A stretch of DNA of 57,911 nucleotides from Acidobacteriota bacterium (lineage in GTDB: Bacteria; Acidobacteriota; Vicinamibacteria; Vicinamibacterales; UBA2999). Made by a program: the position numbers and the translations under genes. Numbering within the stretch: position 1 is the first letter of the stretch; every line of letters begins with the position of its first letter. A model generated the notes under the pieces. That model saw nothing but the letters and a program-made list of their open reading frames with translations, ran no database searches and was not told the DNA's origin. This document shows, piece by piece, positions 22,440 through 38,427 of this stretch. The stretch is from NCBI GenBank assembly GCA_016184455.1, contig JACPCS010000055.1, positions 1 to 57,911 of the forward strand, given 5' to 3'.

Positions 22440-22595
22440 GAGGCACCGCGACACGGAGCCGGGGTCGGTCAACCCTTGGCGACGTATCAGGAGTTTCCTT
22501 CGCCTCGATACCGTGAGCGACACGAATCCCAGTCGACGTTAGCCCGATGGCAGTTTGGCCGTCAGCTTTGAGATGTCATCCTCAAGCTGAGCGAT

Positions 22596-22955
22596 TTGTT
22601 TTTGAATACCTGCGGCGGTGACCTCCGCGGAGGACCACAGTATGATGAAACAACATGTCACAGCGGTGCCCTGAAGGCGCACTTCCGCGAGCGTTGGCCC
22701 GAGTTCTTTGTCGGCACCGATAAGCAGTGGGTACTCTTCGAGAAACTGCATTTTTCGGCGGGTCCGTACAACACCTCACTCCAGCGAGGGTTACTGAGCT
22801 GCGACGTTCGCCCTCGCGTTTCGGCTGCCATAGTCCCGACAATTCTGGTCGTAGGCAGCGGGGACTGGTATGTGCCTGATATGGAATGGCTGGCACGTAA
22901 CCTGCCTTCGGCATCGCTATGCGTCATCCCGGACGCTGGGCACTTTGTGTCGTGA
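22596..22955 (+). pseudogene. C-terminal fragment of an alpha/beta-fold hydrolase (truncated remnant)
   Basis: 'PTILVVGSGDWYVPDMEWLARNLPSASLCVIPDAGHFVS*' is a typical C-terminal catalytic-His segment. No N-terminal nucleophile region is present. It lies in visibly lower-GC DNA. Confidence 0.45.
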
Positions 22956-23131
22956 ATGAGGTCACGAGGCGCCTCGTCCCAGGGAAACGCGTCTCGCAGC
23001 TGTTGGACGGTCCAAGCTGCCGTGGGATCGGGATCCAGTGTCTTTAGGGACACCTTGATTGTGCTCCCATGGTTCGCAAGGCGCAGACGGCATTTTCGGT
23101 AGGGACAGTCGACGACGCCAACTCATTGAAA

Positions 23132-23170
23132 GAATTGGCTCTGGCTCCTCGGGCTGGACTCGAACCAGCA
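23132..23170 (-). other. tRNA 3'-end fragment (T-arm, acceptor 3' strand and CCA); putative att-site remnant
   Basis: The minus strand reads '...GCTGG-TTCGAGT-CCAGC-CCGAGGA-G-CCA'. The upstream sequence does not fold into D or anticodon arms with a matching acceptor 5' strand. Confidence 0.4.
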
Positions 23171-23289
23171 ACCCTCCGGTTGACAGGCGGAACAAACGAC
23201 GTTAGCTGCGCTTGCGGCGGTGTGCTAAACGCTGGAGGATTGTGCAGGATCATCAGACAGGGCAACAGCGAATCGCTGTACGTGCGAAT

Positions 23290-25935
23290 CTACGTGGTCG
23301 CTGGTTCGGCGTTGCCGGAAGCCGGTGCGGGTTCTGGTGCAGGCGTCGGCGCAGGTACCGCTGGCGCCGGCGCGGCGACGGGCGCGGGCGGGAGCGGAAA
23401 GCACGTCCCCGGAGCGACGTTCAGCAGCCTGCAGGTTTCGGAGTAGATGTCAGCCACGCGCAGATAGTTGCGCGTCTTGCGGTCGTCGTCGTCGAAGAGC
23501 TTGTCGTACGCACACAGCTCCCGGCGTGCCCGTTCGATCGCACGCCGGTTCGGCTTCGGGTCGGTGACATTGTTCGTGTCGGTGGCAATTCTGACCAGCT
23601 CGAGCAGAGAGTCCGCGTACAACCGGACACGGAATAGCGGCCCCTTTTCCTGCAACGCGATTGCACGCTCGAGCACACCCAGCGATTCTGCGTAGCTCCC
23701 GCGGTTGTTCAGCACCTGGGCAAGCATGAAGAGCGACGCCGGGTCGAACGGCGCGGCGGTCAGGTAGGGTTCGGCCTTCGTGTAGTCACGAGTTTCTTCG
23801 GCGAAGTAGAAGCGAGCATAGACGAACTTCGCTTTCGCATTCGCCGGGTCCAATGCGAGCGCCCGATCGAGGAGCGTGGTGACACGCTGAGGCCAGCTGG
23901 TCTTGTCCTTCCGCTCGAGATGCGCCTTCGCGAGGTCCACGTGCACGTCGGCGTAGGTCGGCATGAGATCGACGGCCTCGCTGAGGCTCTCGATCGCTCC
24001 GTTGCGGTCGCCGCTCGAGAACTGCATGCGGCCGTAGGCATGCAGCACGATGCCGCGGGCGAGCGGATGCCCGGAAGGCGCGGCCCGCTGCAGCTCATCG
24101 GCGTGCTGGTTGAACCAGTTCACATGCGCGCGCAGCCGCTCTCGTGCCTGCCGCGTGCGTTCCTTGTCCGGCGAGTCGTCCCGAACCAGCGAGATCTTCA
24201 CCGCCTCTCTGGTGCTCTGGCCACTACGGGCCAGCATGACCAGGCGCAGCCGCTTCGCCGCATTCAGCTTCTGACCCTCGGCGTTTGTCTCAAGTGCGAC
24301 GAGCGCGTCGAGGATTCGCCCGACTTCCGAGTCCTCCCGGTCATCGCTGGCCAGTGACAACGTGGACGCCAGCTGGTACTGCACGACGTGAGGGAAATCC
24401 GGATGCTCTGCGATGTGGCCTTGAAGGGACTTGCTGGCAGCGGCTTCCTGCCCCGTGAACCAGGTCAAATGACGGAGTGCGGTGCGTGTGTCCTTCGTGC
24501 CGCGTGCGCACAGGGCGAGCTGAAAGCGCGCGAGCCAATTTCCGCTGTCTCGGTCGAGCGCGTTCTGAAAGTGCACCGTCGCGGTTTTGAAGGCGTCTGC
24601 CGTGTTCGCGGCGAAGGCATAGAGGCCGAGGATGTATTCCTTCAAGCTGTCGCAGTTGCTCGTGACCGTGTTCGTCGTCTCGCCGTCGAGAATCATCCGG
24701 GAGGCGATGTCCACTAAGCAGGTGATGCGTGCCTCCGCCGACGCGGATGGCGCAGACGCTCGCCACTCGCTCTTCCTGCCGAACAGCCGGTCCTCATGCA
24801 TCAGCCGCAGGGCCAGCGTGTTGTCGTACGCGGTCAGCGTTCCGGTGAATGCGTGTCGTGGCCGAGGCGTCATCACGCGCTTGATGAACGTCCACAGCTG
24901 CTGCGGGTTGAGGCCGATCCCTCCCACCGCAATCGTCGGCGTCGACGAGACGAAGGCATCGAGTTCTTTCGCAAGTTCCGGCGCATCGACCGGCGGCGTG
25001 ACGAAGACGAGGTCAGGCGGCGGCAGCTCGCCCCCGTCCTCGTTCAGTGAATCGCCGGCGCCGGTGGCGTCGAGCTTTGCCGAGCCTGGCCCAGCCTCGC
25101 GGATGCGATCGATGACGTCCTGAAGCTCCTGCGCCAGCTCGCGGTTTGCCGCGGGTGATGCGACCGCCAGGCTCAGATCGACGAGCTCGAGACTCCTCTT
25201 CCTCGTCAGCCAGATTCGACGCAGGACGAAGATGATGGCGAGGACGACAAGGAATGTCAGCACCCATTGCCAGATGGTCCGGGCGGCGTCGCTGAAAGAG
25301 CGATACAGGGTGGGGATGACTCCGTACGGCTCGTCGTCGAACAGCTTCTGTGTCGCGTTCTCGACGCCGAGTGTCGCCCGGACCTTGGTGTCCTCGGAAA
25401 TCGGATCCGTCTGCTTCGCGACCGCATCGTACGCGTCCTTCGCTTTCTGATAGAGACGGCGATTGAGGTACGTGTCCGCGCGGGTCAACGCGGCGCGAGC
25501 GGCCTGCTCGATGGCATCTTGTCGTTTCACGACGGCGGGACTGCGCTTCTGCAGCTCCGCGAGACGACGCTGCACGACGATCGCGAGTCCGGCGTCACGG
25601 GCGTGCGATACACTCGGCAGAAATTCCGTCAACGCGTCGATCGCCTGCTTGGTGAGCCCATGCTTCGCATACGCATCGATGACGCCCAGCAGATTCGTCG
25701 TCTTGTCGATGAGCTCGAGGTGCGCTTTGAGATCCTCGGCGCCGAGTGGAGGCTTCAGCGTGTTGAGTTGCTGCCGCGCCTCCGCCAGCTTGCCATCCGC
25801 TTCGAGGGTTCTGATGGCGTCCGGAAGCGGATCGGACGGGAGCGCCGAAACGGCAACCCCATTCAACACGCACAGTGCGAGGGCGATCTGGCCGAAGAGA
25901 CGGCACCGCATCGGACGCACATCTACATAACGCAC
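23290..25935 (-). CDS. Large TPR-repeat protein with a signal peptide, one internal TM helix and a Pro/Ala-rich C-terminal tail
   Basis: 881 aa. Signal peptide 'LFGQIALALCVLNGVAVSA', TM 'IWQWVLTFLVVLAIIFVL', multiple TPR-like helix pairs, and tail 'PAPVAAPAPAVPAPTPAPEPAPA'. Confidence 0.7.
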   Translation of the reverse strand: MRYVDVRPMRCRLFGQIALALCVLNGVAVSALPSDPLPDAIRTLEADGKLAEARQQLNTLKPPLGAEDLKAHLELIDKTTNLLGVIDAYAKHGLTKQAIDALTEFLPSVSHARDAGLAIVVQRRLAELQKRSPAVVKRQDAIEQAARAALTRADTYLNRRLYQKAKDAYDAVAKQTDPISEDTKVRATLGVENATQKLFDDEPYGVIPTLYRSFSDAARTIWQWVLTFLVVLAIIFVLRRIWLTRKRSLELVDLSLAVASPAANRELAQELQDVIDRIREAGPGSAKLDATGAGDSLNEDGGELPPPDLVFVTPPVDAPELAKELDAFVSSTPTIAVGGIGLNPQQLWTFIKRVMTPRPRHAFTGTLTAYDNTLALRLMHEDRLFGRKSEWRASAPSASAEARITCLVDIASRMILDGETTNTVTSNCDSLKEYILGLYAFAANTADAFKTATVHFQNALDRDSGNWLARFQLALCARGTKDTRTALRHLTWFTGQEAAASKSLQGHIAEHPDFPHVVQYQLASTLSLASDDREDSEVGRILDALVALETNAEGQKLNAAKRLRLVMLARSGQSTREAVKISLVRDDSPDKERTRQARERLRAHVNWFNQHADELQRAAPSGHPLARGIVLHAYGRMQFSSGDRNGAIESLSEAVDLMPTYADVHVDLAKAHLERKDKTSWPQRVTTLLDRALALDPANAKAKFVYARFYFAEETRDYTKAEPYLTAAPFDPASLFMLAQVLNNRGSYAESLGVLERAIALQEKGPLFRVRLYADSLLELVRIATDTNNVTDPKPNRRAIERARRELCAYDKLFDDDDRKTRNYLRVADIYSETCRLLNVAPGTCFPLPPAPVAAPAPAVPAPTPAPEPAPASGNAEPATT

Positions 25936-26119
25936 GAGGTCCGTGAGTCTAACACGTCAGTGCGCGACGACTCGTGTTGCATTTTCACGGTTTCGACGTT
26001 ATCACCTACGGTGGCGCACGGGTCTCTGGAGAGCCACCCGGGCGTCTTCGACCCCCAACGAGACAAATTGGTAACTCCTTCAGAGCCGCTGAAGAACCAC
26101 CGGCTCGAGAGGCAGATGT

Positions 26120-26443
26120 ATGAGGATCAACAACAACAACTCACTGGATTTGGCGGCGAAGAAGGGAGAGTCGTTGACCCTGTCGCTGCAGGACGGCGAC
26201 GCGCTCGTGTCGTTTTCCGGGCTCGCGAACGGGAATCTCACGAAAGCCAACCCTCACCAATTCACGGTGCCCACGACTGGCACCGATTTGCCGCTCCTTG
26301 TCCGGGCGACCTTCAAAGCCACGTCCGGCGGCTTCGCCTCGGTGCGTGTCTCGGATAACAACGGCACCGTCGCACCGTTCACGTTCACGCAGTTCCCTGG
26401 CACTGTCACCAATGCCGTCGTGTTCCTGATCGACATCGAGTGA
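26120..26443 (+). CDS. Small hypothetical protein (107 aa)
   Basis: Beta-rich composition. Its stop lies 8 bp before the next gene. Confidence 0.4.
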   Translation: MRINNNNSLDLAAKKGESLTLSLQDGDALVSFSGLANGNLTKANPHQFTVPTTGTDLPLLVRATFKATSGGFASVRVSDNNGTVAPFTFTQFPGTVTNAVVFLIDIE

Positions 26444-26450
26444 GGACTCA

Positions 26451-27911
26451 ATGAAACCGAGCACTCGAGTTCTGCTGACTCTTGCGGTGCTGCTGAGCAT
26501 CGCGGTTCCAACTGGCGCACAGGCACCCGTTCCAGATCCGGCGAAGCATCTGGCCGGCCAGATTGCCGGACGGGCTGGCGAGATCAGCAGACTGCAGGCC
26601 CAGGTGAGGAAGAGTCCGAAGTCTTTGACTCCGGAACAGACGCCGCTGTCGACGGTCAACCTGGCCGTCGATTTCGAGCCGATCTATCTGTCGTTGATTG
26701 GCAGCATCTCGAAGCAAGCGATGCGGGCGCTCGAGGAGCGGCGAATGGACAAACAGGTCGGGGACGCCTCCGGTTCGACGGCTGGGTCCACGTCGCTTGT
26801 CTCGAAAGGCGGCACTCCGGCCGTTTTGGCCGTCGCTGTTGAAAATGGCGCCCTGACCCAGGACACCAGCGGGACGACCGTCACGTTCCGCGGATCTCCG
26901 GTGAGCATCGTCCAGGCGATCCGAAGGACGCCTTACTTCGAGATGCTCGAGACCGATGACCCTGCTATCGAGGTCCTGCAGAAATTCTCGTTCTCCTTCT
27001 CTTTCGACACATCCCGCGGATTGGCCGACGGTGCTGAACGAACGTTCACTGCCGATCGACAACAGTTCTCCGCGGCAACGCTTCGCTATAGCGCGGTGGA
27101 TAACAAGGATCCGCGTGCAGCGGCAAACGACCCGCGCTGGAATGCGCTTTCGCCGGCAACCGACGTCCTCAACCGGGCCGCGCTCGCGGCTCTCAAGTCT
27201 CTCCAGGCAGATCCGGCAATCGTCGCGTGGGTCGATGCCACGAACGAGGCGATCAGCGCCGCATCGCTCGACGAGATCGAAGACGTCGTTGTGGCTCGGT
27301 TCCAGTCGCTTCCAACAGTCGAGATCGTGCCTGCGACGAGAGTGGCGGTCAACAATGCGGCCGACCAGTTCAAGCGGATGGTCAGCCTGCGTGCGGAGAT
27401 CCTTCGGGAGATCGCCGGCGGTGGACAGTTGGTCTTTGATTTCGCCTATCAGAAGCCGGCGACTGGTCCGACGTCTGGCAACGTCACAGTGGTTGGCTCG
27501 GTCGGTCGGTCGTTCCTGCTGACGGGCAACGTCGCTGCGACGTTCTACATCGGCGACGTGCCGGCCAACACCGAATCGCTGCGTGACGTCCAGGGCTCGG
27601 TGCAGGTCGATATCCCGTTCGGCGATCCTGAGGGAATCGGCCGATATGTGTTCACGCTCGCAACCAAGATCCAGCACATGCCGGACGACCTCGTCGCCGG
27701 TGAAGGCACGCTGTTCCCAGGCACCAAGGGCACGATTGCGCTTGGGCAGGCAAAGCTGACGATTCCCGTCAGGGGATCCGCAGCGAAGATTCCGCTGTCT
27801 GTGACGCTTGCGAACAGGACGGAACTGATCGCGGAGAAGAAAGTGTTCGCGCGCGCCCAGGTCGGCTTCAGCTACGACCTCGACGCCGTGCTCTCGCGGT
27901 TCACACCATAA
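26451..27911 (+). CDS. Secreted hypothetical protein (486 aa)
   Basis: Signal peptide 'MKPSTRVLLTLAVLLSIAVPTGAQA'. No recognisable catalytic motifs. Confidence 0.55.
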   Translation: MKPSTRVLLTLAVLLSIAVPTGAQAPVPDPAKHLAGQIAGRAGEISRLQAQVRKSPKSLTPEQTPLSTVNLAVDFEPIYLSLIGSISKQAMRALEERRMDKQVGDASGSTAGSTSLVSKGGTPAVLAVAVENGALTQDTSGTTVTFRGSPVSIVQAIRRTPYFEMLETDDPAIEVLQKFSFSFSFDTSRGLADGAERTFTADRQQFSAATLRYSAVDNKDPRAAANDPRWNALSPATDVLNRAALAALKSLQADPAIVAWVDATNEAISAASLDEIEDVVVARFQSLPTVEIVPATRVAVNNAADQFKRMVSLRAEILREIAGGGQLVFDFAYQKPATGPTSGNVTVVGSVGRSFLLTGNVAATFYIGDVPANTESLRDVQGSVQVDIPFGDPEGIGRYVFTLATKIQHMPDDLVAGEGTLFPGTKGTIALGQAKLTIPVRGSAAKIPLSVTLANRTELIAEKKVFARAQVGFSYDLDAVLSRFTP

Positions 27912-28274
27912 CGGCAGGCCGAGGAAGCGTGCAGCGCTCAGGGCGTATGAAACCTGTCGCTGTGCGCGTCGTGTCTTCTTGCGGATGGAAACGCGAGAAT
28001 GCGCGCCGCCAGCGCACGCGTCGACGACAGCGCGAATACCGTCAAGCGTGGACTGCGGAACCGGCGTCTTCGCCTGTTCCCCACGCGCGTTCGGGGCCGG
28101 ATCGCTCATGGAGATTCACCATGATACCTGCAGTATCCATCAACTTCAGCAGGGGGACGCGCGGCTGCGCTGAGCCTCGACTCCCCAAGCAGAGTCGGCT
28201 TCAACCCGCCGGCGGAGGACGTGGAGACCGATCAGGTATTCCCGACTTCGTTTCCAACTCGCGAAGGTCAAGCC

Positions 28275-28739
28275 TCACCAACATCCGCCCACACGACGCC
28301 TCACGCCAAGCTGCGGAGGCCACGAGGCTCGGTCACTGGTCGGGCACGCTGCGAAGTGTCGATTCGCCGGAGACCCACAATCGTAAAAGTAAGACCCTCG
28401 CCACGGCCAGCCGGGTTTGTGATACGACGTGCTGAACACCGTGACCAAAGCGCCGCCCAAGAGAAGTAATGCCCACTGGCTGAGAGATGCACTCAACGCG
28501 ACAACTTCCTTGAGACCCGCTGAAATCCTCTCGAACTCAGGGTCGCGGCTCGGAGACTGAGGTGCTGGAATTGTCGGTGCAGCACCCTTTGATTCAGTGA
28601 CCGTTCCTTGGGGAGTGCTTTCCTCTTGGAGTTGGCTAGATGACACCGCACAATGTGGGGAAGCCAGCGTAGCCATCACGGTCACAACTCCGATGGTCTG
28701 AGCTATTTTCGCTGCGACCTTCTTGCGGCTGATCGCCAT
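28275..28739 (-). CDS. Hypothetical membrane protein
   Basis: The internal ATG 'MAISRKKVAAKIAQTIGVVTVMATLA' is taken as the start. A second TM 'WALLLLGGALVTVF'. Confidence 0.35.
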   Translation of the reverse strand: MAISRKKVAAKIAQTIGVVTVMATLASPHCAVSSSQLQEESTPQGTVTESKGAAPTIPAPQSPSRDPEFERISAGLKEVVALSASLSQWALLLLGGALVTVFSTSYHKPGWPWRGSYFYDCGSPANRHFAACPTSDRASWPPQLGVRRRVGGCW

Positions 28740-28758
28740 CCGTTCACCAACACGCGTC

Positions 28759-29067
28759 TCAATGCTCTCGGAACACGCTGATGCTGTTTGCTGCCCTCGC
28801 AACCACCCTCACCGTCCCGTCCCACCCGGTCGCATATATCGCCCTCCGCACCGTCAGCGGATTGAACTCTTCGGCCCGAGTCGCAACCATCACTGTTTTG
28901 GGCTGGCTCCGATTTCGGGTGATGTTGCTTGCGAGGAGTTCAACGGTGTAGCGCCGAGGATGCGCTTGGCCCACGTTGATGAAGTGGGCGGTCATCGACG
29001 GGGCGGGCTGCGACAGCGCGGGCAGAGCCGCGAGGAGCAGCACGAGGACAGCCGAGGTACGCTTCAT
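28759..29067 (-). CDS. Small secreted hypothetical protein (102 aa)
   Basis: Signal peptide 'MKRTSAVLVLLLAALPALSQPAPS'. Confidence 0.4.
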   Translation of the reverse strand: MKRTSAVLVLLLAALPALSQPAPSMTAHFINVGQAHPRRYTVELLASNITRNRSQPKTVMVATRAEEFNPLTVRRAIYATGWDGTVRVVARAANSISVFREH

Positions 29068-29158
29068 CTCGGGTTGAACTGTCAGTTGGCTGGTGGCATC
29101 CTACCGGAACTCAAATCCCCGCATTCATAGCACTTTGGCTGACAGAAAGGTGCGTGCG

Positions 29159-30277
29159 ATGACCCGACGCCGCCTCGTCATCCCCATTCTCGACTTGCAC
29201 CTTCACTTCCCGATGCAGTTCCCGTTGGTTGCTCGGCCCTGCGAGGTTGAAGTTCCGGCCTGGACCGCATTCAACCAGGCGCTCATGGGAGCCGCGAATC
29301 TGTTCTTCAATTTCGGGAGGCGTCCCCGCGTCACATTGCCCGATGCCGAAGAGGCGAGCGTCAGTTTTGCTTCGGTGTTGCACATCCCCGCCGATGAAGT
29401 GTGGGGACCGTGTGGCCCGTTCGAGAACATCCAGAATCAGATGGCGCAAGTTGAATCGGCCGTAAGGCGACGGCCGGGGTGGACGGTCGCTCGAACTCCT
29501 GCGGAACTGCTCGCCGCGATGGAGGCAAATGGGCGCTGTCTGTTCCACTGCATCGAGGGCGGCTACAGCGTCGGAGGCCCCGACAACATCCCCGCGCTTG
29601 CGAGAGCGGGAGTCGCCTACATCACCCTCGCGCACCTTCGCTTCAGGGGCATCTCGGCCTGTGTGAACGGGCTGCCGTTTCTGAACGATGGGATCTTCTC
29701 GGCACTGAACCCGATGCCAGTTCGCGGGCTGACGGAAACTGGCGTCAGGGTCGCAGAGGCAATGATGGATCACGGCATCATCGTTGATCTCACACACATG
29801 ACGGAGACGGCGATGGATGAAGTGATCGCGATGGCGCGCATCAAGAGCCGACCTGTGATGGCATCACACACAGTGCCCCGCGGAACTTCCTCCCCAACGT
29901 ATCTGCTGAACCTCTCGGATGAAATGATGTTGAAGATTCGGGAGACGGGAGGCGTTATTGGCGTGATCGCCTTCAAGCACTGGTTGCATGACCCAACGAA
30001 ACCGCGCGAAAAGCAGGATCTCCGAATCATGTTGCGGGCTATTGAGCATGTGCGCAGGGTCGCTGGCGATGATCACGTTGCGATAGGCTCTGACCTCGAT
30101 GGGTTCATCCATCCCGTTGACGGGCTGAAGAGACTGCGGAACTTCACTGCGCTTCGCAGGGCAATTCTCGACAGCTATCCGGGACTTGCGGAGAAGATTC
30201 TCTGGAGAAATACCTACCGAACGCTGGAGGCTGGCTGGACGGTGATGCGTGAGCCGAAGGGAGTCGCTTACGTTTAG
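29159..30277 (+). CDS. Membrane dipeptidase, peptidase family M19 (renal-dipeptidase-like)
   Basis: Conserved blocks 'HCIEGG', 'GVAYITLAH', 'GIIVDLTH', 'ASHT', 'GGVIGV', 'DHVAIGSDLDG'. Confidence 0.75.
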   Translation: MTRRRLVIPILDLHLHFPMQFPLVARPCEVEVPAWTAFNQALMGAANLFFNFGRRPRVTLPDAEEASVSFASVLHIPADEVWGPCGPFENIQNQMAQVESAVRRRPGWTVARTPAELLAAMEANGRCLFHCIEGGYSVGGPDNIPALARAGVAYITLAHLRFRGISACVNGLPFLNDGIFSALNPMPVRGLTETGVRVAEAMMDHGIIVDLTHMTETAMDEVIAMARIKSRPVMASHTVPRGTSSPTYLLNLSDEMMLKIRETGGVIGVIAFKHWLHDPTKPREKQDLRIMLRAIEHVRRVAGDDHVAIGSDLDGFIHPVDGLKRLRNFTALRRAILDSYPGLAEKILWRNTYRTLEAGWTVMREPKGVAYV

Positions 30278-30643
30278 CCCGCACCGAGGCCTTGCCATTC
30301 GATCCGTCGCGAACCGCGCGATGGACCTCTTGGGTTGATGGAAGGGTCGCCTCCTCCGAACTGGGCTCGTGCCGAAACGGCACCGAGGTGCGGAACCTGA
30401 GGCACGGCGCGCTGCTGATGTCGCGGATCTTCACTTCTGGAGAGGAAGCGCTGGAGTGGGCGGAGGAGGAGCAGGAACGGTTGGTTGAGTCCGGCTCGAC
30501 GCCAGCAGCATCGGTAGGCGTGCAGTCTCGAAAGCGTATTGAGTAATGCAGATACTCGCGTCTGTCCTTTCGCTCTTTGGAGCCCTAATCGCAGCCGGCG
30601 GAACAATCGATCAGCGCGAAAAGGAATCCCGTGTCGAGGAAGG

Positions 30644-30871
30644 TCACGCCTTCGGCGCGCCGTAGAGGTACTGGTCGTGATGGTCGGCCATATCCACAGG
30701 CGCGTCATCGATGAAGCCGATCAGCGCCTCCGCCGCCTTCCATCCGGTCGGATCATCGGCGTCGCTGGGGGCGGCCGCCGGGATCACGACTTCGACCTCG
30801 GTATGCTCTTCGAGGTGAATCGGCTCACGAGGCTTGAACACGCCGTTTTCGTAGATCGCCTTCACGGTCAT
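30644..30871 (-). CDS. Type II antitoxin-like small protein (DUF104 / 'MTVKAVYENGV' family); no cognate PIN toxin downstream
   Basis: 'MTVKAIYENGVFKPREPIHLEEHTEVEV' is the hallmark N-terminus of this antitoxin family. No PIN-like ORF follows it. Confidence 0.65.
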   Translation of the reverse strand: MTVKAIYENGVFKPREPIHLEEHTEVEVVIPAAAPSDADDPTGWKAAEALIGFIDDAPVDMADHHDQYLYGAPKA

Positions 30872-30910
30872 CAGCGGGCCTCAACGACATTGTAGCGCGG
30901 GGGACTCCCG

Positions 30911-31336
30911 CTATTCTTTGGGCCGATTCGCGCGTTCCCACGCTTCTCTCTGTGCCCGACCTTCCCACAAGAGTTCCCGCGGAAAGCCATCGATTCGAAT
31001 CCACTCGAGCGCCGGGTCTTGTTTGCCGAACTGCAGGAAGTGATTCAAGGCCTGAGTCGCACGTTCCGCAGATACGAATAGTTCGCGAGGCCAGCGCTCC
31101 AAGGCCTGTCCGCCCAGTTCCATTTCGATTGAAGGCGACGAGAAATGCCGACTCGTTGCCAAAAAATCGCTCCAGGACTCTTCGTGCCAGTCGAGGTGCA
31201 CGCGAGGATACTCAGCGTCTGCGGGTGAGATCGACGCGCCGTCCCAAACGGGACGCGATTGAACGTCCGCCAGAAGCTCTGAAGCCGAAGCAATCGGCAT
31301 TGGGTGATCGCCGATCTTGTAGGAAAAGGCGGTCAC
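30911..31336 (-). CDS. Hypothetical protein (141 aa; immunity-protein-like composition is speculative)
   Basis: Acidic, Trp-rich. Its 5' end overlaps the integrase-fragment ORF. An alternative start at 'MPIASA' is about 31300. Confidence 0.4.
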   Translation of the reverse strand: MTAFSYKIGDHPMPIASASELLADVQSRPVWDGASISPADAEYPRVHLDWHEESWSDFLATSRHFSSPSIEMELGGQALERWPRELFVSAERATQALNHFLQFGKQDPALEWIRIDGFPRELLWEGRAQREAWERANRPKE

Positions 31337-31795
31337 GTCCGAACCGTCCCCATCCCGTCGTGGGTCAAGGCCGCGGTCGATACGTGGACGACGGCAGCCG
31401 GTATCTCAGAGGGCCGCGTCTTTCGGGCGATCAACAAGGCGGGGCGGATCTGGGGCGACGGGATGTCGCCGAAGGCGCTGTGGGATGTCGTCCGGGCGGC
31501 GGCGGCACGCGCCGGCATCGAAAAACTGGCTCCACACGATCTGCGCCGCACGTGCGCGAGGCTGTGCCGCTTGGCGGGCGGCGAACTCGACCAGATCCAG
31601 TTCCTCCTGGGGCATGTCTCTGTCCAGACGACGGAGCGGTATCTCGGGTGCAAGCAGAAGCTTCGATGCGCCGTGAACGACCGGCTCGGCGCGGAAGGCC
31701 GACCCCCGTCCGCCCTTGGCGACCTATGTGCGGTAACCTCTCCACCAGCATTTGATCGCTGTTCGTTCGCGTCGTGTCCAATGCTAGGAACTTAG
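31304..31795 (+). pseudogene. 5'-truncated tyrosine recombinase/phage integrase (C-terminal catalytic half only)
   Basis: 'GKGGHVRTVPIP', 'HDLRRTCA' (H-x-x-R box) and 'LLGHVSVQTTERYL' (catalytic Tyr box). No N-terminal SAM/core-binding domain or Arg-I region precedes it. Confidence 0.6.
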
Positions 31796-31826
31796 GCTCG
31801 TACACCCGCCGCAAGTAGGAGGACCG

Positions 31827-34800
31827 ATGCCTATGTTTACCCTCACCAGCTACCAGGACGAGGTGGCGCGCCTCCAAGATGAGCTCCGGGACGCACTGAG
31901 GTCGCGCGATAGGGACGCGGAGATCGGCGCGCTGCTCGCCATCGGCAACGCGGCTCTGGACGAAGCGCCGGAGCTGGCGTTCGGGCACTTCAAGCTCGCG
32001 GAAAAAGCGGTCAGGCGCGCGCGCCGGCCGCAGCGCCTGCATGAAGCGCTTGGCGGCCAGGCCATGGCGCTTCGCCTGACCGGCGACGTGCAGGCCGCGA
32101 TCGATCGGTTCCTGAATGCGGAGCGCGCCGCCGGCGAAGCCGGCAACACGGCTGGCCAGGTGCGCTGGATGCTGAATCGCGCCTCGCTGCTGCGCACGAT
32201 GCGTGACCTCGACCGGGCGAGCGGCCTGATAGACGAAGCCGAACGCCTCTTGCGGCCGCCGGGGTCGAACGCGGTCGCACGCATGCTCGGGCCGGTCAAC
32301 CTGTTCGACAAGGAGCAGGTCGTCGTCCTCGCGGAGCTCGAGGGCCAGCATGGCGTCACGTGCAACCGGGCTCGCGATGAGCAGGGCGCCGAGGATCATT
32401 ACCGTAGCGCGGCCTTCTTCGCGGAGATGGCCGGCGACTCGAAAGGCATCGCCACGTGGTCCGGCAACGTCGGCAACACATGCGTGCGGCGGCAGGCTTT
32501 CAGCGATGCGATCGAGTGGTACGAGAAAGCCGTTGACGCCGCGATCCGGACGGGACAAACGCAGACGATCCTCAGCGCCGCAACCGGACTGATGAACGGC
32601 TTCGCGCGCGCGTGCCGGCATGAAGAGGGCGGCGATCGCCTACGGGCACTGGCGGACCAGGCCCCTGACTCCTCGCTGAAGATGGCGCTGCTGGATCGCG
32701 CGCTCGAGATGTACGACCAGGGGATATACGTAGACAAGGGACTCCAGACCGCGCGTGAAATAGAAACGCTCGCGAACGGCGCCGCCGATCGCCCCGACTT
32801 CCTCAACAGCGTGATCTCCATTCGCGAAAAGATGGAGCGCAGCACCGCGGAGCCGGCGGAGGCGCCGCCGCCCGATGCACCAACAGCGCTCGACCTGTAT
32901 CTCTCGGACCGCATGAGCCGCGCCGAGCGGTCGCGCGGCAACCTCGACATGGCGGTCCAGGCGGCGCATCGCGTCTGTGACGTGCGCCTGGCGCTGGCGC
33001 TGGCCGGCGGCAAAGCCTGGAAGCGCATCGTTGACGGCGACATGCTGCGCCTGCCCGGCTATGACCTGCAGGTGGTCTTCGACACGCTGCGCATGCTGTT
33101 CGACGCAGACAGATTTGACGCGGCCATCGATCTGCTGCAGCGCTACAAGGCACCCGGATTCTGCGTGCCCACACTGTCGCGACTGAAGGCCGAGGGCGCA
33201 CCGACCGCGGAGAGCGCTGCCTATTTGCAGGCGGTGGACGACCTCTGCCGCGAAGTGGAAGCGTTGGCCGGCCCTGCCACACCCGATTTCTTCCGCGTCG
33301 TGAATGCCGTTGGCCGCGCGTCCGCGCGCATGTACGAAGCCGGTGAAGCGCTGAGAGCCGGCGATCCGATCCTCGCGGCGCGGCTCGGCGCCCCAGTCCA
33401 AAAGGACGATCTGATCGACGCGCTTCCCTACGCAGGCGGCGTCGCGATTGTCGATTTCCTCGTCGGCTCGAACGCGACGATCCTCATGATGATCGGGCGT
33501 GGCAACGCAGGCGTCGTCGCGTTTCCGATCATGACGCCGTCGTTCACAGCGGAGCACGCACAACAGCTGTTGGATCTCTACCGCGAGGGCAACCTGCCGA
33601 AGCAGCTGGGCGGTGCGCAGGCGAAAGCGTTGATGGAGATCGCGCAGCTGCTCCACGACAACCTGTTCTGCGGGCTGGCTCGCGAGCTGGCCGCACGCGG
33701 CGTCAATCAGCTCATCCTCGTTCCCGACGTGTTGACGCGGAACCTGCCCCTCCACCTATCGCTCGCGTGCGGAGAGGAGATCAACGTGCCGGGCGTGGAC
33801 ACGCAGGGCGCCAACTTCCTATGCGAGGTCATGCCAATCGAGTACGCGCCGTGCGTTCAGGCAGTGGCCACGAGCCAGGTGTATCAACGTCCCAAGCGCA
33901 TCGAGCGCATCGCGGCCTTTGCGGATCCCGCAGGCGACCTGACCGTGGCGCGCGTGGCCATGGAAGAATTCGGCGCCCATTCCGGCGACCCCGGGAGGTT
34001 CTTTCTGAGGAGCGGTGCCGACGTGACCAAGGCCGCGGTGACCGAGGAAGTCCGCACCTCCGACGTCGTCATGTTCGCGACGCATGGCGTCTTCTCGCCA
34101 GGCCAGGTCGAAGAGAGTCGACTCCTGCTGCACGACGAGCCATGGCGCATGACCGACATGGCGCGGATCGGAGAGCTCGACAAACGCGCGCTGATGGTGC
34201 TGATGGCGTGCGAGGTCGGCGCCATTGCGCCGACTCCAGACGACTGCTCGGCGTGGGGCATTCCCGGCGCGCTCATCTCCACCGGCGCCAGCGCCGTGGT
34301 CGCCAATCTGTGGCCGGTGGAGGACGTCACCTCCAACGTGCTGGCCGAAGCGTTCCTCAAGCACCTGGGACATCGCGGCTATCGTCCCGCCGCGGCAATG
34401 TTTCGCGCCGTGCGCGACCTGCGACGGATGACGCGCGACGAGGCGCTCGCGCGCTGCCGCGACCACATCGCGGTGCTGAAGGCCGCGAATGCGCCGGGGC
34501 GTGCGTTACTTGGAGCCCGCTCGCTGCTCGAATGGATCGAAGACGAAGGCATGGAGCACCCGTTCGAGCATCCCTATTTCTGGGGCGCGACGGTCGTCTT
34601 CGGCAGCGGATGGCACCTGCCGGCTGGTGCGTCAGTGGGCCCGGCGATGAACATCATCGAGAACCGCCTCAAGCAGGAATCCATGGACGCGCTGCTCGCG
34701 GAGTCGAAGGCGGCCGAGGCGCTCGCGGCGGCGAAAGCGGTTGCGGACTCGTCCGACGGGCTGCCGCGCGGCCGGGCGTACACGACGATGGCGGTGGCGA

Positions 34801-34961
34801 TGCTGCGGTTGGCGGATCCGAGCACGGAGGCGCGCCTGCGGCGGCAGGCGTCACGGCTGCTTGCACACGCATCGCGCATTGCCGCGCGCGAAGACGACGA
34901 AGAGCTGCGCGCCCGTGTAGCGTGGGCCAGCGCACAGATGGAGGACGGCCATGTGGTCTAG
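31827..34961 (+). CDS. TPR-repeat protein with a C-terminal CHAT (caspase-like) protease domain
   Basis: 1044 aa. The N-terminal 600 aa carry TPR-like repeats. CHAT His block 'DVVMFATHGVFSPG', Cys block 'ALMVLMACEVGA', and terminal 'HPYFWGATVVFG'. Confidence 0.8.
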   Translation: MPMFTLTSYQDEVARLQDELRDALRSRDRDAEIGALLAIGNAALDEAPELAFGHFKLAEKAVRRARRPQRLHEALGGQAMALRLTGDVQAAIDRFLNAERAAGEAGNTAGQVRWMLNRASLLRTMRDLDRASGLIDEAERLLRPPGSNAVARMLGPVNLFDKEQVVVLAELEGQHGVTCNRARDEQGAEDHYRSAAFFAEMAGDSKGIATWSGNVGNTCVRRQAFSDAIEWYEKAVDAAIRTGQTQTILSAATGLMNGFARACRHEEGGDRLRALADQAPDSSLKMALLDRALEMYDQGIYVDKGLQTAREIETLANGAADRPDFLNSVISIREKMERSTAEPAEAPPPDAPTALDLYLSDRMSRAERSRGNLDMAVQAAHRVCDVRLALALAGGKAWKRIVDGDMLRLPGYDLQVVFDTLRMLFDADRFDAAIDLLQRYKAPGFCVPTLSRLKAEGAPTAESAAYLQAVDDLCREVEALAGPATPDFFRVVNAVGRASARMYEAGEALRAGDPILAARLGAPVQKDDLIDALPYAGGVAIVDFLVGSNATILMMIGRGNAGVVAFPIMTPSFTAEHAQQLLDLYREGNLPKQLGGAQAKALMEIAQLLHDNLFCGLARELAARGVNQLILVPDVLTRNLPLHLSLACGEEINVPGVDTQGANFLCEVMPIEYAPCVQAVATSQVYQRPKRIERIAAFADPAGDLTVARVAMEEFGAHSGDPGRFFLRSGADVTKAAVTEEVRTSDVVMFATHGVFSPGQVEESRLLLHDEPWRMTDMARIGELDKRALMVLMACEVGAIAPTPDDCSAWGIPGALISTGASAVVANLWPVEDVTSNVLAEAFLKHLGHRGYRPAAAMFRAVRDLRRMTRDEALARCRDHIAVLKAANAPGRALLGARSLLEWIEDEGMEHPFEHPYFWGATVVFGSGWHLPAGASVGPAMNIIENRLKQESMDALLAESKAAEALAAAKAVADSSDGLPRGRAYTTMAVAMLRLADPSTEARLRRQASRLLAHASRIAAREDDEELRARVAWASAQMEDGHVV

Positions 34962-35751
34962 AAAGACGACCGATCCGCTCGCGAAGCTCCTGTTCGAGAA
35001 ATACGGTGTGCACGTGCTCAGCCGCCCACGCGAGAATGTCTCCGTGTGCGACCTGTTCGCGGTGAGCGACGACAAGATTGTCCAGGCGGGCAGCCTGGCG
35101 GCGTTCCTGAAGGCGCCGTTCGGCATGCCGGGCGTGACCAAAGACGAAGCGCTCATCGACATCGAGTCCACCGTCTCGAACGCCGTGTCGGGCAGCGTGG
35201 GCGTCAATTTTCTGCAGGGTTTCCTGACGCTGATCGGCGCCGCCGCGCTGACCGCCGTCAAGCCGGCGCTTGAAAGATCGAAGGACCGCGCGCTGCGGTT
35301 TCGTTTCGGCGGATGCACGCGAAACTACGTCACGGACGGCTACGACCTCTCGTACCGGCTCGGCGACGTCGCGTTCGACAAGGACGCGTCGGCGATGAAG
35401 GATGACTGGCGGTACTATCTCGCCACCGCCGTACACCACTGCAAGGAGCTCGTGTTCGGGCTCGAGGAGAAGAACAAGACGAAGGTCGACCTGTCGGCGG
35501 ATATCGCAGCGACGGCGGGAGCGAACGTGGCGTTGTCGGTGGATGGTAACCAGCAGGTCACTGCCCACAGCGATCGCAAGCTGGCGTACGGGGTCGAGCT
35601 GAACGAGCTGGTCTACAACACGGAGCGCCGACGCCTCGAACTGGCGGAGGCCGCGCACTACGTGCACGTGCGGGCTGTTGGTGTGGCGGACCTTCCGCGA
35701 GCGGTGGTTGGCAGCCCCGACGGGCCGATGACACTCACGCTCGCGGACTAA
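34951..35751 (+). CDS. Gasdermin-like protein (putative bacterial gasdermin), translationally coupled to the CHAT protease
   Basis: Its start overlaps the CHAT gene by 11 nt, with RBS GAGGACGG. 266 aa. N-terminal 'PLAKLLFEKYGVHVLSRPRENVSVCDLFAVSD' mirrors the gasdermin N-terminus pattern (F..v.r.lv.eL..gg.L.PV.sL..s..F.P..LV.k). The later 'YYLATAVHHCKE...VTAHSDRKLAYGVELNEL' parallels GSDMA3 'LYVVMEAVEAKQ...VTIPKGCVLAYRVRLL'. Confidence 0.5.
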   Translation: MWSRKTTDPLAKLLFEKYGVHVLSRPRENVSVCDLFAVSDDKIVQAGSLAAFLKAPFGMPGVTKDEALIDIESTVSNAVSGSVGVNFLQGFLTLIGAAALTAVKPALERSKDRALRFRFGGCTRNYVTDGYDLSYRLGDVAFDKDASAMKDDWRYYLATAVHHCKELVFGLEEKNKTKVDLSADIAATAGANVALSVDGNQQVTAHSDRKLAYGVELNELVYNTERRRLELAEAAHYVHVRAVGVADLPRAVVGSPDGPMTLTLAD

Positions 35752-35764
35752 TTGCTGGCGGCGG

Positions 35765-35880
35765 TTAGACTTCACGGCCCGGCAGCCGGAGGGGCTGGAC
35801 GGGCTTCGGTCGTGCGGCCGGTTTATCGACGATGTGTTTCAGCCGGCGATCTTCGTCGTCGAGTTGCTTCAGGCGCTGCA
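35765..35880 (-). mobile_element. Remnant of an IS3-family transposase OrfA (C-terminal leucine-zipper segment)
   Basis: 'CGVIVANDDEMQRLKQLDDEDRRLKHIVDK' resembles the IS3 OrfA segment 'GM.VS.akRLKaLEdENarLKklla'. There is no full ORF and no IRs. Confidence 0.3.
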
Positions 35881-35981
35881 TTTCATCGTCGTTGGCCACG
35901 ATAACGCCGCAGTGTCTACAACGGACGCGTCGCTTCGGAAGGCATCTCCCATGTCTTCGTGGATCGGAAACGCACGGACGT

Positions 35982-37853
35982 TCAGAAGCTGTGGCCGACG
36001 CCGAAGTGCATCCGCCAGCGTCGGGTCCGCGCCTCACCGTCGATCTGCAGTCCTTCGACGGTCGTGAACTGGTGCGCGAAGTCGAGCCGTAGCAGCGCCC
36101 ACGGCGAACGGTAGCGCAGGCCGATGCCCCCGTCGGAGTGGAGATTGCGCGCGAGCGTCCAGGCGTCCTCCCAGACCTTCCCGGCGTCCATGAACAAGAC
36201 GGCGCCGAGCGGACCGGCCACGGGAAGGCGAATCTCACCCGTCGTTGCGAAGAGCGACTGTCCTCCAATCGGCAGGCCGGCGGCGGAGAGCGGGCTCACC
36301 TCGAGGCGGCCCCACCCGCGCAGCGTGTCCGCGCCGCCAAGGAAGTAGCGCTTCGACAACGGAACGTCCGATCGCCGCGTCTTCGGGACGATCGACCCGT
36401 ACTGCACCCGGCCGGCGAGCGTCACGCGCGCAATGGGGTGATAGTACCGGCCGTCACCGAGCACGCTGACGTAGTTGAACGAGCCGGGGAGCCACCCGCC
36501 GGCCTGTTCCAGGCGGGCCGCTACCAGATACCCTCTCGTCGGTTCTGCCGGCCGATCGGTGGTGTCCCGCTCCGCGCTGAACTGCAGCGCCGACAGCAGG
36601 CCCTCCTGCTTCCCGCTGCTCGAATCGAGCCCGAGCACCGTGAACTGCGCGCGCGATGCGGGGTCCTGTTGCGCGTCGGTCGGGATCTGCACACGCTGGA
36701 ACTCGTGGACGTAGGTGCCGGTCACGGTATGGCGGCCCGCCTCGTAACGCACTCCAGCGCGGCCTCCGCGTGAGAGCGCGTCGTACGGGGCCTCGTCGAA
36801 CTGCCAGACGTACCCGCTCCCAGTGAGCGCCAGACCAGATCTGAAAAGGTGCGGTTGGACGAAGGCTCCCTCGGCCCCGCGATCGAGCCACGACCATTTG
36901 CCACGCGTCGAGACGGTGCGCGCACCTCCGAGGAAGTTCAGGTGCCGCCATCCGATCTCGCCATAGGCCCGCTCTTCGGACCCGTACCCGAACGAATATG
37001 TGAACTGCGTGTGATCGCGCTCCTTGACGGTGACGCGTGTCGCGACCTCCGGCGCGCTGTCGCCATCGACGACCGCGATCTCGACGGATTCGAAGAGCCC
37101 AAGCTGGTACACACGGCGTTGGCTCTCCTGGAGCGCAGCCACCTGGAAGCGTTCACCCGGCAGGTACGTGAGCTGCCGCCGGATCACCGGGTCCTGGACA
37201 CTGATGTTTCCGACGATGTCGATCGGCCCGAACACCGCCTGCAGGGCCGGCTCGGCCCTGATTTCGAGACGAACCTGGCCGGGCGCAATGACGGTCTCCA
37301 GCGCCTCCACACGTGCCCGCGCGTAGCCCGCATTCCCCAGAGCGGTCACCGCCTGGCGAACGGTCTCCTCCACGTCCGCTGTGGCGACCGGCTCTCCGGG
37401 CTGCAGCGCTGCTGCACCCGTCATTGCCTCCACCTCGTCGGCCGAGAGGACGTCAAAGCCGCTGAAGACGACCTGTGCGGCGCGCACAGGCGATCCCTCG
37501 TGGACGACGATTCGCAGCCGCACCTCGTCGTTCGCGTGCCGGCTCACGACGCCTTCCGCGCGGGTGCCCGGGTAGCCGCGGTCGGCGTAGAACGCTTCGA
37601 TGCGTCGCAGGTCCGCCTCGAAGATCGCGGAATCGAAAGACGCCCTGTCGCGCCAGGGCAGTCTTGGGCTCGTACGGGTCTCGAGAAGGGCGCGCACGTC
37701 TGACTCGCGTACGGCGCGTGCGCCCTCGATGTCGAGCTCGACGACTTCGAGACGCTCGCTCGGCTCCTCCGCCGGACGCTGCTCCAGCCGCGCCTCCGCA
37801 CGGTGGGAAGCCAGCACCAGCGCCGCGAGCACGACGCCTCGATACGGAGACAC
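35982..37853 (-). CDS. Omp85-family outer-membrane protein (BamA/TamA-like; POTRA domains plus C-terminal beta-barrel)
   Basis: Signal peptide, POTRA-like repeats, bacterial-surface-antigen-like C-terminal half ending in 'HFGVGHSF'. Confidence 0.8.
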   Translation of the reverse strand: MSPYRGVVLAALVLASHRAEARLEQRPAEEPSERLEVVELDIEGARAVRESDVRALLETRTSPRLPWRDRASFDSAIFEADLRRIEAFYADRGYPGTRAEGVVSRHANDEVRLRIVVHEGSPVRAAQVVFSGFDVLSADEVEAMTGAAALQPGEPVATADVEETVRQAVTALGNAGYARARVEALETVIAPGQVRLEIRAEPALQAVFGPIDIVGNISVQDPVIRRQLTYLPGERFQVAALQESQRRVYQLGLFESVEIAVVDGDSAPEVATRVTVKERDHTQFTYSFGYGSEERAYGEIGWRHLNFLGGARTVSTRGKWSWLDRGAEGAFVQPHLFRSGLALTGSGYVWQFDEAPYDALSRGGRAGVRYEAGRHTVTGTYVHEFQRVQIPTDAQQDPASRAQFTVLGLDSSSGKQEGLLSALQFSAERDTTDRPAEPTRGYLVAARLEQAGGWLPGSFNYVSVLGDGRYYHPIARVTLAGRVQYGSIVPKTRRSDVPLSKRYFLGGADTLRGWGRLEVSPLSAAGLPIGGQSLFATTGEIRLPVAGPLGAVLFMDAGKVWEDAWTLARNLHSDGGIGLRYRSPWALLRLDFAHQFTTVEGLQIDGEARTRRWRMHFGVGHSF

Positions 37854-37854
37854 G

Positions 37855-38427
37855 TCAGGGCTTCACGACCGCCCCCGCCGCACGCATCTCGTCGATCGCG
37901 CGCGCCGAATCACCCGGCTGCACGTCCACGCCGGCAATCGCATCGCCGAGCACCGTCACATCGAACCCCGCCCGCCGGGCGTCGAGCACGGAGTGTTTCA
38001 CGCAGTAGTCCGTGGCAATCCCCCCCACGTAGAGGTGGTCGACGCCGCGCGCCCGCAGATCGTCGACGAGCGTCCGTCCGTCGGACGTTGTCCCCTCGAA
38101 GGCGGAGTATCCCGGCTTCTCGGCGCTCTGACCCTTGCTGATCACGATCGCTCGGGACGGCAGCCGCAGTCCGGGGTGGAACTCGGCGCCCGCGGTGTGC
38201 TCGACACAGTGCACCGGCCATTCGCCCCCGTACTGCCGGAAATGGCGCGTCACCGGCGGGTGCCAGTCGCGCGACGCGTACACCGGCCATCCCTGTGCGG
38301 CCGCCTCATCGACGTACCGGTTGAGCGGCTCGACGACGCGGTCGCCCGCAGGCGCGGCGAGCGCCCCGCCGGGGCAGAAGTCCCGCTGGACGTCCACGAT
38401 CAACAGGGCCGATCGCGTGTTGTCCAT
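37855..38427 (-). CDS. pncA: Nicotinamidase/pyrazinamidase (isochorismatase family)
   Basis: 'ALLIVDVQRDFCPGGAL', 'DWHP', 'VGGIATDYCVKHSVLDA' (catalytic Cys). Confidence 0.85.
   Translation of the reverse strand: MDNTRSALLIVDVQRDFCPGGALAAPAGDRVVEPLNRYVDEAAAQGWPVYASRDWHPPVTRHFRQYGGEWPVHCVEHTAGAEFHPGLRLPSRAIVISKGQSAEKPGYSAFEGTTSDGRTLVDDLRARGVDHLYVGGIATDYCVKHSVLDARRAGFDVTVLGDAIAGVDVQPGDSARAIDEMRAAGAVVKP

Follow-up and report, generated by a model that had tools for sequence, protein, structure and literature searches.

We analysed a stretch of DNA of 57,911 nucleotides (nt) from an Acidobacteriota bacterium (GenBank assembly GCA_016184455.1, contig JACPCS010000055.1, positions 1 to 57,911 of the forward strand), which we call the window. 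Two adjoining genes in this window encode a 1044-amino-acid (aa) TPR-CHAT protease and a 266-aa bacterial gasdermin. With a probability of roughly 85%, we read the locus as a two-gene bacterial gasdermin module of the protease-plus-gasdermin type, in which the gasdermin start lies within the end of the protease gene. The features of the module, in window coordinates, are the following.

31818..31823, plus strand: ribosome-binding site GGAGGA of the protease, read directly from the sequence, 3 nt 5' of ATG 31827 and 9 nt 5' of ATG 31833
31827..34961, plus strand: TPR-CHAT protease gene, an open reading frame (ORF) of 1044 aa
31851..33416, plus strand: N-terminal TPR-like alpha-solenoid (aa 9-530), presumably the domain for sensing or regulation, with ~27 consecutive helices in the structure model
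33441..34604, plus strand: beta subdomain and caspase-like CHAT domain of alpha/beta type (aa 539-926), from Pfam, the model, Foldseek and the catalytic-core profile
34083..34085, plus strand: codon of the catalytic His753 (in THG), invariant and aligned to a verified H585
34209..34211, plus strand: codon of the catalytic Cys795 (in ACE), invariant and aligned to a verified C627
34644..34952, plus strand: five-helix bundle at the C-terminal end of the protease (aa 940-1042), modelled with confidence
34940..34945, plus strand: ribosome-binding site GGAGGA of the gasdermin, read directly, within the 3' end of the protease gene and 5 nt 5' of ATG 34951
34951..35751, plus strand: gasdermin gene, an ORF of 266 aa
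34954..34956, plus strand: codon of Trp2, which takes the place of the Cys that is palmitoylated in characterised bacterial gasdermins, from alignment to 7n50
35662..35709, plus strand: variable loop (aa 238-253), the predicted protease-accessible region, with a predicted local distance difference test (pLDDT) score < 50, preceding the C-terminal peptide
35707..35712, plus strand: predicted scissile bond V253-G254, by motif analogy to the Runella gasdermin
35710..35748, plus strand: predicted inhibitory C-terminal peptide (aa 254-266), GSPDGPMTLTLAD, a conserved amphipathic tail, by homology

A preliminary description of this DNA, made from the letters alone, had reported two ORFs with an 11-nt overlap and a separate ribosome-binding site for the second, and the coordinates and the overlap are indeed found as described; a GGAGGA site was read from the sequence before each of the two genes. 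The overlap is ATGTGGTCTAG. ATG 31833 is an equally plausible start of the protease, which would then have 1042 aa. Scanning 31000-36300 for promoters and terminators gave no signal exceeding the shuffled background.

The 1044-aa protein is a TPR-CHAT protease in family, fold and conserved catalytic dyad. The Pfam CHAT family PF12770 matched aa 605-926 over profile positions 3-288 of 289 with E = 6.7e-30, and its 105 bits stand well above the Pfam cut-off of 24. The His block VVMFATHGVFSPG (aa 747-759, with His753) and the Cys block LMVLMACEVGA (aa 789-799, with Cys795), both quoted in the preliminary description, were located within this domain. In an alignment of 17 homologues with 38-59% identity (alignment A2), H753, G754, A794 and C795 are invariant, together with 100+ further positions. 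In alignments made with a profile of the catalytic core, THG and ACE coincide with HG and ACE motifs in DdvA (E = 2.6e-7), Csx29 and the Sb TPR-CHAT protein of Craspase, whose H585/C627 pair is an experimentally verified catalytic dyad (PMC9729208); the His-Cys spacing of 42 residues is equal in the window protease and Sb TPR-CHAT. The AlphaFold model of the protease (pLDDT 81, predicted template modelling score (pTM) 0.83) was matched best in Foldseek by Csx29 and Craspase TPR-CHAT, separase, DdvA and the TPR domains of LGN/Pins. The proposed TPR region is weak when judged from the single sequence, where all Pfam TPR matches fell under their cut-offs (TPR_12 with 18 bits against 30), but solid by profile and structure: the A2 family profile matched consensus TPR proteins at E = 7.6e-19, and the homologues carry several Pfam TPR assignments. 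No family could be assigned to the C-terminal helical bundle at aa 940-1042, in which D977 and G978 are invariant among the 17 homologues.

The 266-aa protein is a bacterial gasdermin in family and fold. The PADLOC bacterial gasdermin (bGSDM) model matched aa 8-229 with E = 1.5e-27, and NCBIfam prok_gasdermin (NF051890) matched with E = 1.8e-22. The window's own locus recovered from another sample (L063) carries a DNA-identical gasdermin gene, annotated as Bact_GSDM (PF26164). Our local Pfam scan gave no match for the 266-aa protein and likewise none for a homologue annotated with PF26164; this null result is uninformative because the PF26164 model is absent from that copy of Pfam. A phmmer search of the PDB with the single sequence found the Vitiosangium gasdermin (8sl0 and 7n51, E = 1.4e-8, about 1.5e-8) and the Bradyrhizobium gasdermin (7n50, E = 0.03), and the family profile found the same two proteins at 1.1e-10 and 3.9e-5, respectively. 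In a Foldseek search with the AlphaFold model, which was built from 29 homologues (pLDDT 77.5, pTM 0.75), 7n51 was the best match (E = 5.6e-14, template modelling (TM) score 0.70), followed by 7n50 (TM 0.64) and 7n52. The top eight matches were all bacterial gasdermins, the next were gasdermins of Trichoplax and mouse or human GSDMD, GSDMB, GSDME and GSDMA3, and no unrelated fold appeared with E < 0.5. The structural check thus placed the protein closest to three bacterial gasdermin crystal structures and then to those of animals. The size also fits the class (about 240-300 aa with a short C-terminal peptide): the homologous core extends to approximately residue 235 of the 266, followed by a loop and a conserved tail of ~13 residues.

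The sequence resemblances that had first suggested a gasdermin held up as well. The quoted N-terminal pattern lies at aa 9-38, and the GSDMA3 strings given for the later block are exact (6cb8 residues 152-163 and 197-212). The corresponding segments of the window protein, aa 155-166 and 203-220, occupy nearly equal positions and form long beta-strands in the AlphaFold model. The gasdermins of Vitiosangium (7n51, 8sl0, 9a84) and Bradyrhizobium tropiciagri (7n50) are the closest solved relatives by sequence and fold. They share the length class and the N-terminal motif x-[S/K]-R-x-T-x-D-P/E-L with the window protein; however, the identity is only 17-22%, and they bear a palmitoylated Cys3 or Cys4 in place of Trp2. 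The family that the gasdermin profile can reach is small: out of 1.84 billion representatives, it draws 289 clusters (50% identity). A pattern-based scan of 185,579 species-representative genomes, with the gasdermin alignment and two peptide patterns, found no member of the clade, which does not prove its absence there. One family member of 803 aa (P0117) has a gasdermin domain at residues 3-264 and could be a fusion to a large C-terminal region.

Previously, 43 of 50 bacterial gasdermins were found to adjoin proteases, of which CHAT proteases were the commonest (23 of 59), and some gasdermin-linked proteases were fused to TPR, LRR, WD40 or NACHT domains (Johnson et al. 2022; 10.1101/2021.06.07.447441). 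The kind of system described here is not new, because both the prevalence of CHAT proteases beside gasdermins and the TPR fusions were noted in 2022. Apart from the N-terminal Cys, which is not universal, the window locus fits that description wherever it can be tested.

The pair is conserved as a unit. A TPR-CHAT gene is directly followed by a Bact_GSDM gene in seven distinct loci (the P0013 contig, which is present in two samples, and L001, L003, L006, L007, L008 and L066). L063 was left out of this count as the window's own locus; L004 and L005 stop at the protease gene and cannot show a gasdermin, and the L066 contig carries only the final 645 residues of the protease. Across the loci the TPR-CHAT proteins measure 1035-1092 aa, and at their junction the two genes overlap by as much as 29 nt or lie as much as 2 nt apart. 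The genes flanking the module are unrelated between loci. Because the neighbours differ in this way, we regard the module as two genes without a conserved third one. The identities of the two proteins to those of the window drop in parallel (58/58, 53/55, 50/50, 48/50 and 46/38%). Compared with L066 (81% identical protein), the ratio of nonsynonymous to synonymous substitution rates (dN/dS) comes to 0.20 in the gasdermin and to 0.16 over the final 645 codons of the protease, and both genes are under purifying selection. The protease protein is identical in L063, from another sequencing run, and is also present in two further runs. The module occurs in two phyla (Acidobacteriota and Gemmatimonadaceae), since the distant copies P0040 and P0041 (49-50% identity) lie in Gemmatimonadaceae metagenome-assembled genomes (MAGs). 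HMMs, fold, dyad and the pairing across distant loci all agree with the combination of CHAT protease and bacterial gasdermin that the preliminary description had proposed.

Two loci of Gemmatimonadaceae type have defence-like genes near the module: a Schlafen-group-3 helicase and an AAA_14/DUF4143 ATPase in L003 (4873-6567, 1358-2542), and a PLD-DEAD/helicase-DUF3427 protein and an HNH nuclease in L007 (376-4609).

The best structural matches of the protease, the TPR-CHAT/Csx29 proteins of type III-E Craspase (7x8a, 8d9f, 7y9x), share its TPR-plus-CHAT architecture, its aligned dyad and the 42-residue spacing, and show that ligand binding can activate a TPR-CHAT protease allosterically. They differ in that the window protease is ~300-370 residues longer than the solved chains and has a gasdermin as its partner, and the global TM score is only 0.26-0.30. 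DdvA, a transmembrane anti-sigma factor of Myxococcus with a CHAT domain (8rot, 8rw5), is the closest solved CHAT core by profile, with HG and ACE aligned; however, it belongs to a different system and lacks a gasdermin partner. A Craspase or CRISPR context was considered for the locus and rejected. Besides the protease, no ORF > 881 aa, as needed for Cas7-11/gRAMP, lies near the module; the PADLOC Cas models gave nothing significant on the island ORFs, only a marginal Csx1/Csm6 match (E 0.0092) with no stretch passing; neither a CRISPR-like repeat array nor any Rfam match was found in the whole window, and Csx30/31 was likewise not found.

The resemblance to Craspase raises an alternative, in which the CHAT protein acts in defence on its own, as a Borvo-like or Craspase-like protease with substrates other than the gasdermin. 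In its favour, Craspase TPR-CHAT cleaves Csx30 and not a gasdermin, and PADLOC gave a local BovA match (E = 4.5e-7) to the CHAT core. However, that match spans just 123 residues of the catalytic core, the neighbourhood has no CRISPR array, Rfam match or Cas7-11-sized ORF, and the gasdermin lies 3' of the protease in every locus that reaches past the protease end, with the two proteins diverging in parallel. We consider a stand-alone protease very improbable.

We next turn to the gasdermin tail, where cleavage would be expected if the protease activates its partner. Bacterial gasdermins are autoinhibited by their final 16-21 residues (Johnson et al., Science 2022; preprint 10.1101/2021.06.07.447441). 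The Runella CHAT protease cuts after L247 at a Leu-Gly bond (V246-L247/G248) in a loop of ~12 residues and frees a 21-residue peptide (10.1101/2021.06.07.447441), and this cleavage leads to liposome leakage and toxicity (Johnson et al. 2022; 10.1101/2021.06.07.447441). The Runella zeae system (gasdermin 7n52 with a Roc-COR-CHAT protease) resembles the window locus in having a gasdermin of ~267 aa beside a CHAT protease fused to a large sensor-type region. Its hydrophobic-Gly cut in the loop before a short inhibitory peptide has an equivalent [I/L/V]-G in the window protein, whose fold matches 7n52, and the Runella cleavage loop occupies the position equivalent to aa 238-253. Unlike in Runella, where the sensor region consists of LRR, Roc and COR, the window protease has a TPR solenoid of ~520 residues and a C-terminal bundle; the gasdermin carries Trp2 where that of Runella has the palmitoylated Cys3, the peptide predicted to be released has 13 instead of 21 residues, and the structural-alignment identity to the Runella gasdermin is only 14-18%.

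An alignment of 86 near-full-length gasdermin relatives, collected by exhaustive search, defined a conserved tail consisting of Arg241, a variable loop, Pro, the motif x-[F/L]-[I/L/V]-Gly-[D/G]-Pro and an amphipathic end. Residue 253 is one of I, L and V in 80/84 sequences and residue 254 is G in 68/83; positions 243-247 vary within the close clade of the window gasdermin. The protease is thus predicted to cut between V253 and G254, freeing G254-D266. The site was placed by analogy of motif because no Runella-like sequence is among the representatives for direct alignment of the mapped cleavage site.

The N-terminus of the window gasdermin, MWSRKTTDPL, differs from the characterised proteins at the lipidation position. 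Bacterial gasdermins characterised to date attach palmitoyl to their own Cys3 or Cys4 (Johnson et al. 2022; 10.1101/2021.06.07.447441), and the C4A mutant of the Vitiosangium protein is inactive. In the window protein, W2-S-R-K-T aligns with C3-S-R-D-T of Bradyrhizobium 7n50, and no Cys occurs before residue 33. The lipidation column holds W in 26/28 and C in 2/28 sequences of the close clade; among the 86 representatives of the wider family it holds C in 40, W in 23, L, F or I in 14 and another residue or a gap in 9. The replacement of Cys by Trp is thus found in roughly a quarter of related clusters. Whether the N-terminal residue was Cys or Trp showed no association with the conserved Phe of the tail (column 261). 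The N-terminal Cys is not universal among bacterial gasdermins, and the Gillisia protein lacks it (Johnson et al. 2022; 10.1101/2021.06.07.447441). Because the Cys is frequent but not universal, as Gillisia and the count of 40/86 relatives illustrate, its absence does not exclude membership in the bacterial gasdermins. Our literature search found no paper joining bacterial gasdermins, tryptophan and the N-terminal cysteine. Trp2 may act as a built-in hydrophobic anchor. One could go further and suppose that the clade, with approximately a quarter of the related clusters, forms a palmitoylation-independent class of bacterial gasdermins in which an encoded Trp (or Leu, Phe or Ile) takes over from the self-attached palmitoyl as plug of the hydrophobic tunnel and as membrane anchor, and that the TPR-CHAT protease with its extra C-terminal domain might sense a new kind of trigger. 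This idea is tentative, and we consider it somewhat more doubtful than probable.

The missing palmitoylation Cys, which the Vitiosangium gasdermin requires, could also be taken as a sign that the module is a decaying, non-functional remnant of a degraded island, as could the truncation of the adjacent integrase. However, random loss does not explain the Trp at this position, because it is conserved throughout the clade and also seen in other clusters. The two ORFs are uninterrupted and have good ribosome-binding sites, the dyad and 100+ positions are invariant across homologues of 38-59% identity, and dN/dS is 0.16-0.20. In addition, the gasdermin is DNA-identical and the protease protein-identical in the other sequencing run, and the protease recurs in two more. 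Decay is therefore an extremely improbable explanation of the locus.

The module lies in an accessory region whose remaining features are given below.

22576..37854, no strand: accessory island of ~15.3 kb carrying the module, with approximate borders, from tblastn synteny
23290-25935, minus strand: island gene for an 881-aa protein with C-terminal TPR repeats
30644-30871, minus strand: orphan AF2212-like antitoxin (PF01954, E = 7.6e-11)
31304..31795, plus strand: 5'-truncated tyrosine recombinase, an integrase remnant (Pfam Phage_integrase, profile positions 60-166 of 172 only)
35982-37853, minus strand: Omp85/BamA-family protein with three POTRA domains and an Omp85 barrel (TIGR03303, 244 bits against a cut-off of 297)

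The preliminary description had called this region island-like and had placed the module next to integrase and insertion sequence (IS) remnants. To define it, all window ORFs were compared by tblastn with syntenic Acidobacteriota loci. The gene matching window 21.5-22.5 kb and pncA (37855-38427) lie 30-1100 bp apart in L014, L015, L009 and L019, and 30-100 bp apart in the first two of these, and no island gene was found in any of the 54 loci analysed. Because the flanking genes are nearly adjacent in relatives and 15.3 kb apart in the window, ~22576-37854 is an insertion. With a GC content of 0.64, and of 0.62 in its left part, it lies below the flanks (0.68-0.69). Approximately 11 kb to the left and 20 kb to the right are syntenic with Acidobacteriota MAGs of Vicinamibacterales type, in which the copies of the island-adjacent nicotinate phosphoribosyltransferase are 73-79% identical to that of the window. 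The island is thus upheld by synteny and the integrase by Pfam and NCBIfam, whereas the IS remnant is not: at 35765-35980, Pfam gave only a chance-level match of 9 residues (E 0.059 in a search to E <= 10), and tblastn against plasmids gave E ~0.9 to unannotated DNA.

Within the island, the order of genes is the TPR protein, a 553-aa protein, an M19 dipeptidase, the AF2212-like antitoxin, a 141-aa protein, the truncated recombinase, the gasdermin module and the Omp85/BamA paralogue. The 553-aa protein (26448-28109, minus strand) had no match in Pfam, NCBIfam or PADLOC. Downstream of the antitoxin, the ORF at 30274-30708 (minus strand) had no Pfam or PADLOC match and is not recognisable as a toxin partner; the two are possibly a degraded toxin-antitoxin pair. 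The integrase remnant, which NCBIfam XerA, XerC and XerD match in C-terminal parts only, stops 32 nt 5' of the protease gene, and its 5' end overlaps the 141-aa ORF (30911-31336, minus strand). At the right edge of the island, the Omp85/BamA-family gene begins 1 nt past the pncA stop, is missing there in all relatives and looks like an accessory BamA/TamA-like paralogue. Exact att-like repeats at the island borders reach 11 nt only, and the whole window contains no tRNA gene. A 20-nt direct repeat with 17/20 (85%) identity joins the left island border (22468-22487) to the 3' end of the integrase fragment (31708-31727). It could mark an older integrative element of 9.2 kb that excludes the gasdermin module, but such a repeat is within chance expectation in GC-rich DNA.

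The setting bears on what the module does for its host. The same biochemistry could serve a role other than anti-phage defence, such as keeping the island in place as an addiction or stabilisation module, discriminating kin, or bringing about programmed lysis in development or nutrient stress. The position of the module in an inserted island, beside an integrase remnant and an orphan AF2212-like antitoxin, would suit such a role, as would the outcome of PADLOC on the island ORFs, which showed no further defence system. On the other hand, some relatives adjoin genes of defence type (the PLD-helicase DUF3427 protein and HNH nuclease of L007, the Schlafen-like helicase and AAA_14 protein of L003), and fusions to TPR sensors are typical of immune sensors. 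Bacterial gasdermin operons were also placed near anti-phage genes such as restriction-modification and SIR2 (Johnson et al. 2022; Fig. S7 legend). We judge a role outside defence unlikely.

For a protease-activated gasdermin module acting in defence, we propose the following mechanism, in which autoinhibition, cleavage, pore formation, cell death and the defence role itself are drawn from homology. The two genes would be co-transcribed and tightly coupled. The 266-aa gasdermin would be made as an autoinhibited precursor, with the short C-terminal peptide folded back onto the twisted beta-sheet core, and the 1044-aa protease would stay inactive until a signal, most likely a phage- or stress-derived protein, is recognised. 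Recognition probably falls to the TPR solenoid of ~520 residues, possibly together with the C-terminal helical bundle, by analogy with the Craspase TPR-CHAT protein, which is activated allosterically. The His753/Cys795 dyad would then cut the gasdermin at the predicted V253/G254 site, within the flexible loop that precedes the C-terminal peptide. The freed N-terminal domain would insert into the cytoplasmic membrane and oligomerise into large beta-barrel pores, and the cell would die before the phage completes replication (abortive infection). Unlike the characterised gasdermins, the window protein cannot receive a palmitoyl at its N-terminus, where Trp takes the place of Cys.

Several points weigh against this interpretation. 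The 80 bits scored against the NCBIfam gasdermin model are below its curated equivalog cut-off of 100. The gasdermin model is of low confidence in the N-terminal 10 and the final 29 residues, and autoinhibition by the tail is not visible in it because those final residues are of low confidence. The predicted cut frees only 13 residues, compared with 16-21 in the characterised systems. From its sequence, the protein lacks the N-terminal Cys whose mutation inactivates the closest solved homologue (Vitiosangium C4A). The island holds no other defence gene recognised by PADLOC. Only a minority of the gasdermin operons that have been cloned are known to protect against phages. What is known of the present locus and its clade comes from sequence and models.

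The locus leaves the understanding of this type of gasdermin system unchanged. It adds soil Acidobacteriota (Vicinamibacterales-like) and Gemmatimonadaceae to the range of protease-activated bacterial gasdermin systems, and its two genes offer a compact system for learning how sensing by TPR repeats activates a CHAT protease. If the clade does form a palmitoylation-independent class, its members would by design do without the lipid modification regarded as necessary for efficient pores, as pore-formers that are ready-made and Cys-free. A clade with Trp at the palmitoylation site makes the requirement of N-terminal lipidation for bacterial gasdermin pores testable.

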